A stretch of 64,000 bases of DNA, from the NCBI GenBank assembly GCA_964016885.1, contig OZ024753.1, positions 28,210,001 to 28,274,000 on the forward strand, written 5' to 3'. The first letter of the stretch is position 1, and each line of letters opens with the position of its first letter. Position numbers and translations under genes: made by a program. The DNA comes from Eledone cirrhosa (lineage: Eukaryota). Below the pieces are notes generated by a model. The model had not been told where the DNA came from and ran no database searches. It saw only the letters and a list, made by a program, of their open reading frames with translations. Positions 19,512-42,024 of this stretch are shown here, one piece after another.

Positions 19512-19745
19512 TTAGAGTAAATGGCAATGTTGGATCTTAAATGATTGAGATCGTTTTATTAGATCCTTATTCAAAATGGGTTCCGTGGCAAAATTCTCTT
19601 GACAATACTTCACCATATCTTTCAGTGTCTCACTTAGAGGACGTCGGGCTACTGACCTCTCTCGCTTCAACTGATCGACCTCCAGCCTTGCTAACATAAT
19701 TTCTTGCGCTTGGCTTATACGGAATCCATGACGTCCACTAGCCAT
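19512..19745 (-). CDS. Divergent G-protein gamma subunit-like protein A (77 aa, CaaX = CHLL)
   Basis: ARLEVDQLKRERSVARRPLSETLKDMVKYCQENFATEPIL fits the GGL pattern (V-x-QL-x-x-E...R...S...YC...DPLL); ends in CaaX; strong minus-strand acceptor (pyrimidine tract + gcag) at 19920-19921. Confidence 0.85.
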   Translation of the reverse strand: MASGRHGFRISQAQEIMLARLEVDQLKRERSVARRPLSETLKDMVKYCQENFATEPILNKDLIKRSQSFKIQHCHLL

Positions 19746-20892
19746 TGGTCACTTGTTATAGAGATAAACAATATCAAATTCAGAACCACGTAGGGTTTTA
19801 TTTTAATTTTTAAGGGTGGTTGGGGAGGAGAGTGTTGATTTTCAGAGGGTCTGTTACTTTTATGTATTTGTGAGTGTTTTAATTAAAACACCAGTAGATG
19901 TGAAAGACCAAATACAAACCTGCAAAAAAAAGAAAAAGAAGAAAATGAATAACAAAATAAATGTTTGTGTTTCTAATTGTTTTTTTTAATCAAATTAATT
20001 AAATGTCAAGAATGAAAGAAATAAGAGAAAAATGAACAAATAATATGGGTAGTAGTAGTAGTGGTTATGGTGGTGATAGTAGTATAGTAGTGGTTATGGT
20101 GGTGGTAGTAGTAATAGTATAGTAGTGGTAGTAGCAGGATCAGTAGTAATAGTAGTAGCAGCTGTAGTGGTATAGTTGTGGTTGTGATAGTAATATTAAA
20201 TATAGTGGTGGTGGTGATAATAATATTAATATAGTGGTGGTGATGGTACTGAAGTAAATGAAACACGGCCAAATCTCAATGATAATTGTTTTAGTTCGAT
20301 CAATGGAATGGCCAGCTCATATAAACATGTATGGAGTTGTGTATTGCACAGACACATATACCTCTCATGATATTAACATGACAAGGCTGTTACTTTGAAT
20401 TAGAGGTACAGTCCACTTGACAGGCTTCTTAACAGTTTCTGTCTACCAAATTTCACTTGCAAGGCTTGAGTCAACCTGAGTCTATGGTAAAGACACTTGG
20501 CCAAGATACCATACAATGGATTTGAACCTGAAGCCCTATAATTGTCAGGTAAACTTCTTATTCAGCTATGCCTGCATAAAATATGAACAATAGTCTCTAG
20601 ACTAGGTATGAGCAACCTTTTTCGAGCCATGAGCCACATAAGGTGTGGCTCATCATAAGGCAAACTGCACTTCTAAAACATTCAAGGCAATTTTGAAATT
20701 AGGTGAGCCATATATACATACATACAAATAAACATACACAGATACTTGTGCTTGGGTTTATGTTCATCCATACATATGAGTGTGTGTGCAATAAAAAGCA
20801 GACAGCTTAAATAACATTAACAACACAAGTGTGACAAAGGAGGAAGAAGTCTTCAGATCTGATAAGAAGGTGGCCTAGAGAAATGGTAAACT

Positions 20893-20906
20893 GTTTCCAT
20901 AGCAAC
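20893..20906. promoter_or_regulatory. RFX X-box-like motif
   Basis: GTTTCCATAGCAAC matches the X-box consensus GTNRCC/GTTNCC-AT-RGYAAC; lies about 1 kb upstream of the G-gamma A coding exon. Confidence 0.4.
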
Positions 20907-21254
20907 CAGATTGTATGTCTGTCTGAATCTGTATGTTTTCTATTATGATTCCACAAATCTCTTCTCAAGTGATCGATGTTACTGAAAATACCACTAATAT
21001 GCTCCATATTGAGAACCCATGGTTTCAAATATATTTCCTAATATATCAGAACTTCTGAAACATTGTCTAATAATAGGTTAGAACAAAACATAAATCACCA
21101 TCCTTATCTTTATTGATATCTTCACAATCGTTGTCATCATCATCATGATGCCCCAAAATCATAATAATAACCAGTATATGAGCTTGAAATAGCAGCCAAA
21201 TCCCTTTCAAATCATACTGTACCATCTTAACCCTTTAGCATTTACATTACTTGA

Positions 21255-21585
21255 ACAATAAAACATGGATGAGTTGAGAGAAAAATTAGGTATGAAAGGA
21301 ATCAAATGTAATGAATAGGAGAGAAGATTATGCTTGTATGGACATGTGATATGTATGAATGATGATCCTTGGGTGAAGAAGTGCCAAGAAATCCCAGTGG
21401 TAGGTAATTACAGTAAAGAGAGAGACCAAGGAAGACCTAGGCAGTTGTAAGAGCAGATTTCAAATTGCTGAAGTTCACGGAGGAGATGACAAAGGTCTGC
21501 AATAAGTGGAGGGAAGCTGTACTAGAAAAGATCTGTCCAGCCCATGCAAGTATGCAAAAGTTGACATAACACAATGATGATGATA
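21255..21585 (+). mobile_element. Degraded RTE LINE 3' end
   Basis: gagaaaaattagg...ggacatgtg...gaccaaggaagacct...cccatgcaagtatg...atgatgatgat, homologous to the other RTE copies. Confidence 0.75.
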
Positions 21586-21599
21586 AAAAACAAGATTTT

Positions 21600-21748
21600 G
21601 ACCTTTCAATTACATTGTATTGACTTTCAATTACATTGTATTGACTTTTCCAATTACATTGTATTGACTTTTCCAATTACATTGTATTGACTTTTTCCAA
21701 TTACATTGTATTGACTTTTTCCAATTACATTGTATTGACTTTTTCCAT
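21600..21748. repeat. Minisatellite with 20-23 bp unit (caattacattgtattgacttt..)
   Basis: About six copies with a lengthening T-run. Confidence 0.9.
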
Positions 21749-21749
21749 T

Positions 21750-39059: not shown

Positions 39060-39230
39060 TTAAAGGTGCCATTCTAGATGCTTTCCTAATCAGTCGTTGC
39101 CACTGGCCTCTATTCTTTGTCATGTGTAGAAAGGTCTCAGTATCAGGAGCTGTCCAGTCTTTGATGTCAGACCAGGATTGTCTGCCTCTTCTTCACCTTC
39201 CCACCTTGGAGCGTTCAGGGAGAGAAAATA
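39060..39230 (-). mobile_element. Old RTE-like LINE C-terminal remnant
   Basis: Minus frame RRGRQSWSDIKDWTAPDTETFLHMTKNRGQWQRLIRKASRMAP resembles RGR...W.DNIKEWTG...DR..WR. Confidence 0.5.
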
Positions 39231-40282
39231 CCTTGGTGCCAGCAGTAGCATCATAAGGGATGGGTGGGTACACTGGTTCTCCCTTGACTCTCACTATTGG
39301 CTCTGAAACCTTCTTCAGCCACACTGTAAACTGCTTTTGCTGGCAGGTTAAATTTAGTGAGGGACTGGATGATTGGAGAGGAGATGGGCACAGCCAAACA
39401 TTTCTAAAGCCCACTGAAATACCATGATAGACAAACAGTAAAAGAAAAGAAATAGTTATAATAAATCATTCTTTAGTGTTCTATGTATTTACATATCAGA
39501 TTTAAACCCTCATGTGTTTACGTATCAGATTTAAACAAAATTAGATACACCAACATATCAGATTTAAACAAGACGAGACACACCAACATATTAGGTATAG
39601 AGAAATGAGACACCAAACCAGAACAAAAACAGTAGAAAGAAAAAATATAGAAATTTCCCCACCAATAAAAAAATATTAAAAAATTTAAAATCACTAAAAC
39701 AGAGCAAGTTTACAAAGTGAATATCAGGGAGTTAATAAATAAAACTTCCACCCATGCAAACATCATATAGGAGTAGAAATTAGAAGACAAAACATACAAT
39801 AAGAGTTTTAATCAACCATCAACAATGATATGAGAAAGGAAGAAATAAAAATCTCATTCAGCTGGGCAAATATACAGGCAGATAAAGAGATAGAAAGATA
39901 GACAAAGAGATAAATTACCACATACATAAATAAGCACCACAAACACAAATTGAAAGCTAAACAATAATACAAACCATTGCAAAAGGATAGGACAAATTTG
40001 AAATAAAGAATTAAAATAAGAATAAGTAATTGTAGAACAATGCCATCATTTAAAAACAAGCCTAAACATGCTTTTATTTTATTAAAAATAAAAAAAATTT
40101 GTTTAGTTGCTTTTCTTCTCTCTCATTTTCTAAAGGACATAACCCGAGACTTTATGTACTGGCTTTTTTCATATCTCCTGTGCATTAAACACTAATATTC
40201 TCAGTTTAGACTATCTTCAGTCTTGCTTTTGATTTCCTGTTACTTTGTTCACTGTGTGTGGGTATATGTATATATATGTGTA

Positions 40283-40327
<45 letters not shown>

Positions 40328-40979
40328 AGAGAGAGAGAGAGAGAGATAATAATTACAAAGACCAACATCCGAAGTGGGCACAATAAGGATTATATATATA
40401 TATAGCAAAATGAACACACTGAGGACAATAACTCAGACAAATGATTATCTTAGTCAGTATTGACAGATGTGAGAATAAGTACTCAATACTAGTAGAGATG
40501 ACTAGTTTGATTAAAGTTGATTTAGTCTTCTGTTACTCTGGAGTTTCACCTATGTTTACAAGCTCATAAGACTGTCTGATCATAAAGTCTTTCCCTGATT
40601 TTAAACCTTTAACTCTTTAGCATTCACATTATTCTATATATACTATTATATTTTCATGGTAAATGCTTTATCTCACATAATATCGAATCTATGAGATTTT
40701 GAAAGTATTTATTTTGAGAACAATACTTTAACATCAGTTTGAGTGACCAGTTACAGCCAGTTTCAACAGAAAAAGGTAGAGAATTCTGGCCGGTTTGAAC
40801 ATTAAAGGGCTAAACAAGATAGAAAAACAGTTTTTTGTACACATGAACTTCTACATGGTAAAATCTCAAATAATATCCAAGATATGGTATTTTATAATCA
40901 AGGAAAGACTTTATGCTCATTCTGTATATATGTATATATGCATAAATGAGGAAAATGCAACATATCAGCCATAGATGTA

Positions 40980-41240
40980 ATGTGCTTCAGCTGCCTTACA
41001 CAGTTTTTGCAGCATTATGATTGGGTTTTGAAACAGCTACTAAAATGCTCAAATGTGAATAAGATGTGTCTCGACTTTCCAAACGACTTTGTCAAAGTCA
41101 ACTATGGAATGAAAATTTACATACTGTATGGTCTTGGCAAAGTTGGAAAACTAGGAACATGGGTACATGATTTCTTTAAAGACAGAAGCCCTCTCAAATG
41201 AAAATTTATTGAGAGTGAAGTACCCCAAATAGATTTCTTA
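40980..41240 (+). mobile_element. Degraded CR1-type RT fragment
   Basis: SCLTQFLQHYDW...NV...LDFPNDFVKV...GKLGTWVHDFFKDR resembles SCLTQLL...YLDFAKAFDKV...GKLL.WI..FL..R. Confidence 0.7.
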
Positions 41241-41808
41241 CTACTTGAATAGCAAGAAAGAAAAATATATACTCTGACATAATGTTGTAAGTTCGATTCC
41301 TAGACAGGTTGCTGCATTGTGTTATTGAGCAAAACACTATTTCACATTGCACCTGTACACGTAGCTGAGAGTGAATACCAGCAGTAGCTGGGGAGTTACT
41401 CTTGCGATAGACCAGCATCCTGTCCAGGGAGAGTCTTCTACTCTAAGTTGCTTAATGCCAAGGAAAGCAGGGATAAGCACTGGCCTAATGAGCCTTTGGA
41501 TTAGAACAGACTTTAGATAATTATGACATAATTTCTTCCCTATTTGTTCACAAAAAGTAATGTTTGAAGATGGATAGATGTATAGTTAGATAAATAAATT
41601 CACACACACAGATACATTCATATATATATATACACACACACACACATACAAAGCACGTAATTCAATAAAAGAAAATTCTGTTTTTATTATTATGTATTAT
41701 TTATTACTGATATAATTTTTTGTTATCTACTCAGTTTACTTTTTATATAATTTGTTCATTATTCATTATTTTGCACTCATTTTTATTTCAATGTATTTAA
41801 ACTCCATT

Positions 41809-42024
41809 TCATTTGAAGCACAGAATACATATGTTGTTATCCGTCTTAACATAAGGGTTATCTTTTTGTGGGACAAGCATGTGGTCTGAAGTTTCATTTT
41901 CCCTGCAATAACGAAGCAGTTCCTCTGTTGTTTGACTCAGATTTTCCCGAACCATGCTCTTCTCTCTGCGTAGCTCTTTCACCTCCTCCTTCAGTTGTTT
42001 CTGCATCTCAGCCTGGTAAGACAT
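41809..42024 (-). CDS. Divergent G-protein gamma subunit-like protein C (71 aa, ends CILCFK, no canonical CaaX)
   Basis: LKEEVKELRREKSMVRENLSQTTEELLRYCRENETSDHMLVPQKDNPY aligns with protein B and the GGL pattern; acceptor ctctgctgccatag at 42040-42041; minus-strand AATAAA at 41782-41787. Confidence 0.87.
   Translation of the reverse strand: MSYQAEMQKQLKEEVKELRREKSMVRENLSQTTEELLRYCRENETSDHMLVPQKDNPYVKTDNNICILCFK

Follow-up and report, generated by a model that had tools for sequence, protein, structure and literature searches.

Background

What are three short open reading frames (ORFs) that lie next to one another on the minus strand of the octopus Eledone cirrhosa, and how did they come to be neighbours? 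They are found in a stretch of 64,000 nucleotides, called the window in what follows, which covers positions 28,210,001 to 28,274,000 of contig OZ024753.1 (assembly GCA_964016885.1). An initial annotation, made from the letters of the window, described them as a tandem cluster of G-protein gamma genes, produced by an old, lineage-specific expansion and kept by purifying selection.

The first part of the question has a firm answer: the three frames, here gA, gB and gC, are homologues of G-protein gamma subunits, and their reading frames are intact. For the second part, the explanation that we favour, and think rather likely, is that they are probably three separate genes predicted to pair with G-beta. 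In this view, gB represents an old subtype and is conserved; gA and gC likely arose by local duplication, evolve fast and have altered tails.

Three G-gamma genes on one strand

In window coordinates, the three genes are:

19512..19745, minus strand: gA, a G-gamma ORF of 77 amino acids, the most divergent of the three; it ends in CHLL and lacks the Asn-Pro of the NP-aromatic motif
34342..34557, minus strand: gB, a G-gamma ORF of 71 amino acids, of the short-loop subtype; it ends in CTIL, a canonical CaaL
41809..42024, minus strand: gC, a G-gamma ORF of 71 amino acids with short-loop spacing; it ends in CILCFK, with no Cys at position -4

The distance from gA to gB is 14.6 kb, and from gB to gC, 7.3 kb. 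Pairwise identities range from 24 to 37% (24-31% between gA and its neighbours), and the three-way alignment has 13 invariant columns; the tandem layout, the span, the strand and the deep divergence first described are thus all borne out. The lengths, 71-77 amino acids, fall within the 65-80 of a stand-alone G-gamma subunit.

The GGL-type motif that the initial annotation saw in the three frames, written as a regular expression, was compared with 864 kb of the contig: of 28,452 open frames there, 3 match it, and these are precisely gA, gB and gC. A hidden Markov model (HMM) built from 73 database G-gammas, from which the window proteins and their near orthologues were excluded, was run over the same frames: it gives E-values of 3.5e-25 for gB, 3.8e-19 for gC and 1.3e-14 for gA, and the next non-gamma frame stands at E = 1. 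The Pfam profile PF00631, whose cut-off is 27.1 bits, recognises gB (49.3 bits) and gC (40.8 bits), but not gA, which scores 20.6 bits (E 5e-4). In the Atlas, the nearest clusters of gA are G-gamma, at 0.89, which we take as a lead only. When each ORF is compared with the whole genome of 3.0 Gb, its top non-self matches are the other two.

No fourth copy or pseudogene was detected in the 864 kb of contig, even with stops read through. One candidate, C13:28307684-28307770 (E 0.3-1), was rejected: its frame is weak and its flanks show no similarity. Outside shared repeats, the three loci have no DNA similarity to one another, and the duplications must consequently be old.

An old short-loop subtype

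We take as the loop the span between the conserved Asp and the Asn of the NPF motif, counted in residues. This spacing is 9 residues in 37 of the 104 rows of the larger of two trees described below, including gB, gC, locus L112, the first gene of locus L113, and three named records, from the annelid Paralvinella (P0164), the trematode Echinostoma (P0022) and the mussel Mytilus (P0037). Loops are longer in two further gamma genes of the octopus, gD (12 residues) and gE (11 residues). Many short-loop proteins of 66-74 amino acids resemble gB, which, judging from these resemblances, is likely a conserved member of an old subtype common to annelid, trematode and mussel.

Locus L113, a piece of DNA with animal-like genes, contains a second cluster: three single-exon G-gammas on the same strand within 3.2 kb, at positions 10001-10213, approximately 11495-11691 and approximately 12989-13189. 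The first is gB-like (47% identity), and the second and third, L113_g2 and L113_g3, score best with octopus gE and gD. The approximately unbiased (AU) test rejects the monophyly of this trio (p-AU 0.018); the clustering of old gamma paralogues is therefore not unique to the octopus. The L113 cluster stands beside a single-exon DIRAS-like GTPase (L113:6070-13189 for the whole), and short exon-like pieces with an acceptor and a donor lie between its gamma ORFs, at approximately 10916-10944 and 12492-12522. Synteny with DIRAS shared by the octopus and L113 was not found, the octopus DIRAS orthologue (85%) being on contig C3.

The lineage-specific expansion proposed at the outset must thus be narrowed. 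It does not hold for gB, which groups with annelid and trematode relatives, and L113 has its own three-gene tandem cluster; the subtype and the clustering of gamma genes are likely old, and only gA and gC are likely derived within cephalopods.

Conservation and annotation

The orthologue of gB in O. bimaculoides, UniRef100_A0A0L8I6C7 (P0001), is 92% identical over all 71 residues: 6 of the 71 sites differ, mostly conservatively. Other assemblies contain an additional relative that is 70% identical to gB. The orthologue of gC, P0006 (MBK3499513.1), is 87% identical, with 9 of 70 sites different, and ends in CILCLK. The record attributes this protein to Campylobacter fetus, on a contig of 316 bases; it is likely a mis-assigned animal sequence in a bacterial assembly.

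Protein identity supports selection on gB (92% and 70%) and on gC (87%), but not on gA, which has no orthologue in the searched collections. We regard gB as almost certainly a live gene and gC as very probably one; gA is probably live as well, with distinctly less assurance. The suggestion that annotation overlooks such genes fits gA, so far as tested, and gC in part, but not gB, which already has a UniRef entry. None of the three exact window proteins is present in a collection of 15 billion proteins. We found no description of octopus or cephalopod G-gamma genes, of the cluster or of a short-loop class in the literature searched, a literature whose coverage leaves out most subscription papers, so that absence from print is unproven.

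Altered tails and predicted structure

The tails of G-gammas set the lipid anchor and the membrane residence of G-beta-gamma. A Cys at position -4 is present in 128 of 139 database G-gamma matches, and absent from both gC and its orthologue. The CHLL of gA is a CaaX box by position, with a His at a1 that occurs in none of the 128 CaaX matches; the CTIL of gB is a regular one. PMC11152559 names CTIL as a likely target of geranylgeranylation, and some CaX ends of three residues can be farnesylated by the human enzyme.

Of the internal motifs, gB has both the DPL-like and the NP-aromatic; gC has DHML and NPY, and gA, EPIL and QSF. The Asn and Pro of the NP-aromatic motif, found in 55 of 55 database rows, are both lost in gA. 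Overall, gB keeps 17 of 18 conserved columns and gA 11.

The alignment of gA to human gamma-13 is gap-free over residues 9-64 of the latter; the terminal Cys-x-x-Leu of gA falls at the gamma-13 position. An AlphaFold model of gA (predicted local distance difference test, pLDDT, 81) has helices at residues 12-31 and 37-50, the two helices of a G-gamma. The top rows of a Foldseek search with this model are chains of G-protein complexes with 30-36% identity, none at E<=0.001. The model of gB, computed from a 3-row alignment, is one long helix with pLDDT 72, and is uninformative.

Exon structure

Each ORF is preceded by a pyrimidine tract and an AG, at 174 (gA), 31 (gB) and 15 nucleotides (gC) before the ATG. 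The corresponding segments, predicted from sequence for gA and gB, are:

19746..19921, minus strand: predicted 5' untranslated part and acceptor of gA; 174 nucleotides without ATG, and a strong pyrimidine tract followed by the AG at 19921-19920
34558..34590, minus strand: predicted 5' untranslated part and acceptor AG of gB; 31 nucleotides with two in-frame stops
42025..42041, minus strand: upstream segment and predicted acceptor of gC; 15 nucleotides open in frame before the ATG, with the AG at 42041-42040
41660..41808, minus strand: probable 3' untranslated region of gC; AATAAA signals near 41787, 41705 and 41688; covered by a contig of sequencing run X4

A single coding exon holds for gA and gB, which have in-frame stops between acceptor and ATG. 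The frame of gC is open for 5 codons up to its acceptor, so a single coding exon is not established there and an N-terminal extension is possible. In run X4, a contig of 446 letters equals 41660-42041 without differences, and is followed by 27 unmatched letters exactly at the predicted acceptor of gC; contigs of runs X1-X3 continue through this point. The break is the pattern expected of a spliced transcript, and we treat it as a hint. For the region of gB, the sequencing-run listing has 4 rows from 1 study, none recorded as RNA, and is uninformative either way. Among the X4 contigs listed, none spans gB.

The single coding exon had been presented as an anomaly, on the ground that G-gamma coding regions are normally split by introns. 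The data do not support an anomaly: in octopus gamma-1 (gD), the whole gamma domain lies within one exon, and single coding exons are also found in L112, in the three genes of L113, and in L114 and L115. Among the invertebrate gammas covered here, one coding exon is nothing unusual.

Could the three ORFs instead be alternative last exons of one transcription unit with a shared first exon, or gC the last exon of a longer protein? They all stand on one strand behind acceptor-like sites, with gC open to its own; the octopus gamma-1 isoforms P0011 and P0012 have different short coding first exons; and, among long frames, no other gene was recognised between the ORFs or just upstream. However, the gaps of 7.3 and 14.6 kb leave room for separate promoters, P0001 is annotated as a stand-alone protein of 71 amino acids, and G-gamma genes that stand alone (L001 and L112) likewise have an acceptor shortly ahead of the ATG. 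We consider a shared unit quite improbable, and continue with three separate genes.

The G-gamma repertoire

The genome contains at least two further G-gamma genes; the search gave 8 matches from 9 candidates, which is a lower bound. The fourth gamma, gD (locus L001, 1486-1698), lies on the same contig as the cluster, 657 kb away and on the opposite strand. It is identical over 70 residues to the Octopus gamma-1-like records XP_014791310.1, XP_029639886.1 and CAI9726640.1, as would be expected of an Octopus-like genome; its sequence is unchanged with respect to them, whereas gB and gC differ by 8-13% from their orthologues. The fifth, gE, has two exons on contig C12 (L005 and L006). Contig C4 has an exon with an RGS-type GGL domain (L004). 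We found no clean gamma-13-type gene elsewhere in the genome, in a search that a split gene could escape.

Among possible partners, no canonical G-beta1-4 surfaced in two genome searches, in which the best candidates only were scored, and G-beta5 exons were the only ones obtained. The latter appear twice with identical scores (L100-L103 and L108-L109, on contig C5 at approximately 1.32 Mb and 9.76 Mb), as an assembly duplicate or a segmental duplication would produce.

The initial annotation took it as established that most invertebrates have about two G-gamma genes. The published numbers do not support this as stated: two reports give 5 G-gammas for the planarian Schmidtea (PMC10078920) and 5 for Nematostella (bioRxiv 10.1101/2023.09.14.557824). 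De Mendoza 2014 (PMC3971589) counts gamma-domain proteins as 6 in Capitella, 4 in Lottia, 4 in C. elegans and 5 in Drosophila; these counts appear to include RGS-type GGL proteins, which suggests approximately 4 and approximately 2 free gammas, and makes them a partial argument only against the two-gene rule. Textbook accounts assign protostomes a single gamma of the GNG type and a single one of the GNG13 type (cited in bioRxiv 10.1101/2023.09.14.557824). Five G-gammas in one invertebrate are not exceptional.

Origin of the three genes

The alignment used for the trees has 72 columns. The 104-row tree is a quick tree, for which 172 domain rows were thinned at 80% identity; the rows of the 40-row tree were picked by hand. 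In the 40-row tree, a canonical group containing gD, gE, L113_g2 and L113_g3 (84/79) is split from the group of gB, with gA and gC outside the canonical group; gamma-13-type rows fall on the gB side of this weak split. A single clade of gA, gB and gC is not rejected (p-AU 0.42), and the same trio with gD is rejected (0.014). Trees cannot place gA and gC.

It is thus natural to ask whether the cluster is an ancient spiralian one that was retained, gA and gC being rapidly diverged orthologues of mollusc or worm genes and not cephalopod duplicates. L113 demonstrates that such an arrangement exists, since its three same-strand genes do not form one clade and are old paralogues in a cluster. gD lies on the contig of gA, gB and gC, the AU test does not reject gA or gC within the canonical group, and gamma-13 is the best PDB G-gamma match of both, with no clean gamma-13-type gene elsewhere in the genome. 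However, gA, gB and gC are mutual best matches in the genome; gC has the short loop of gB, which L113_g2 and L113_g3, scoring best with gE and gD, do not have; the order differs, gB being in the middle here and its counterpart first on L113; and DIRAS, which adjoins the L113 genes, has its octopus orthologue on a different contig. We judge a retained ancient cluster to be unlikely, and prefer local duplication for gA and gC.

Several observations weigh against the favoured explanation as a whole. The trees of 72 columns are weak, gA and gC are long branches, and placement in the canonical group is not rejected for any of the three (p-AU 0.32 for gA, 0.22 for gB and 0.44 for gC). The hint of splicing for gC is one contig of one run, X4, for which no RNA source is recorded, and no exon upstream of gC could be placed. 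The remaining points concern gA. Its Pfam score is under the cut-off (20.6 versus 27.1 bits), its 11 of 18 conserved columns equal the lowest of the 55 database rows, and no orthologue was found in the searched collections, where the best match is 41% over 56 residues. The gap-free alignment to gamma-13 gives gA a longer loop, which is unexpected for a simple copy of gB. Finally, gA has no transcript support, and its acceptor and leader are predicted from sequence.

There is also the possibility, compatible with the other readings, that gB and gC are live and that gA is a copy in decay, or one that was silenced recently. Beyond the low Pfam score and the missing orthologue, the loss of an Asn and a Pro kept by every database row would be expected of such a copy. 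On the other hand, gA has kept a start, 77 open codons and a Cys-x-x-Leu at the exact position of that of gamma-13, in spite of 24-31% identity to its neighbours; it has a strong acceptor and a leader of 174 nucleotides free of ATG; and a random frame of 76 codons stays open with p ~0.005. We find decay of gA rather unlikely, somewhat less so than retention of an ancient cluster, and keep gA among the fast-evolving duplicates.

Predicted function

If the three proteins behave as their family does, the N-terminal helix would pair with G-beta as a coiled coil, the G-beta propeller would be wrapped by the second helix together with the DPL-like loop, and the C-terminal Cys would be prenylated. 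With its CTIL end, gB would be an ordinary gamma, geranylgeranylated like most G-gammas. gA, with CHLL, would likely still be prenylated, but would do without the packing of Asn-Pro on G-beta. gC, having no Cys at position -4, would need another anchor, such as a short CaX site or S-acylation, or would be weakly anchored. Dimers that contain gA or gC would pack less firmly or be anchored in another way, and may thus differ in membrane residence wherever these genes are expressed. The outcome would be cell-type-specific beta-gamma dimers with differing membrane residence, and not a new signalling principle.

A bolder conjecture, which we consider unlikely, is that octopus gammas have given up anchors that are nearly invariant in the family. 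gC would be an expressed gamma without CaaX box, its C-I-L-C-x-K end kept in a second species, whose G-beta-gamma is soluble or only loosely anchored; gA would be a gamma that has lost the Asn-Pro contact. Both would be tuners or sinks of beta-gamma signalling, derived from a third spiralian class of G-gammas.

What is most worth following is the unnamed short-loop subtype, together with the two altered tails. The data suggest that molluscs, annelids and flatworms share an additional short-loop class, that at least two animals have gamma genes in tandem clusters, and that two paralogues of the octopus lack features which almost every other G-gamma keeps. gC offers a good case for asking whether a CaaX box is needed for an animal gamma to work. 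For cephalopod neurobiology, these genes complete a parts list of signalling by G-protein-coupled receptors that annotation under-reports.

Surroundings of the cluster

One neighbouring gene was recognised on the other strand:

1582..9838, plus strand: 3' exons of MAP3K1, outside the cluster (PDB 6WHB, E 2.9e-8; Pkinase; last exon)

MAP3K1 had been named as the neighbour, correctly: its 3' part ends near 9838 and converges on gA, approximately 9.7 kb away. After a TOG-like part, its long exon frame (1582-3255, 557 codons open) has stretches rich in His, Gln and Asn, a run of poly-Gln and a tandem repeat with a unit of 12 bases. Between MAP3K1 and gA lies a degenerate TA microsatellite of 6.9 kb (10836-17735). 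A stretch of 317 bases, 93% alike, is found both downstream of gA (approximately 18580-18895) and upstream of gD (L001, approximately 520-836), and is probably a common repeat and not a relic of duplication. At the other end of the window, an open frame of 364 amino acids on the minus strand (62565-63659), named by its motifs, resembles the reverse transcriptase of long interspersed nuclear elements, and has many relatives along the contig.

Comparison with known G-gamma types

The closest record is the O. bimaculoides orthologue of gB, whose automatic name is 'G protein gamma domain-containing protein'; it carries no function, subtype or cluster, and covers one gene of the three. Octopus gamma-1-like, or gD, belongs to the same family and the same contig, and also has its gamma domain in one exon behind an acceptor. 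It differs from the window proteins by its 12-residue loop, its place in the canonical group, its strand, and an identity to them of 23-37%. More generally, canonical GNG or gamma-1 proteins have loops of 11-12 residues, against the 9 of gB and gC, and all three window genes stand outside their group in the best tree, although the AU test does not reject inclusion.

Gamma-13 (PDB 25st_G) is the best G-gamma match of gA (24.2 versus 22.8 bits) and of gC (22.3 bits), for which no other G-gamma reaches E<=0.01. In the genome, gB is the first match of a gamma-13-type query. However, the best PDB match of gB is gamma-2 (33.9-35.6 versus 29.4 bits), none of the three has the NPW motif, and the score margins are small. 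From these sequence comparisons, an origin of the window genes on the gamma-13 side is plausible. Krishnan et al. 2015, cited in bioRxiv 10.1101/2023.09.14.557824, give each animal a single GNG13 orthologue.

The extra unclassified G-gammas of Nematostella and Schmidtea, with 5 genes each, offer a parallel of approximately five gammas, some of them outside named subclades; the accessible parts of the published accounts make no mention of tandem layout or altered C-termini.

The GGL domains of R7 RGS proteins, partners of G-beta5, belong to the same Pfam family, and the genome has such an exon (L004). The window ORFs differ from them: they have their own ATG, a stop within six residues of the Cys, NPF or NPY instead of the NPW of L004, and no RGS domain. 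Assignment to the DEP-GGL-RGS type was rejected, given the terminal Cys near the stop and the in-frame stops that close gA and gB upstream. The window holds a tandem cluster from a known family, one that has a usual number of genes and a usual exon layout for a spiralian, and not a new kind of system.

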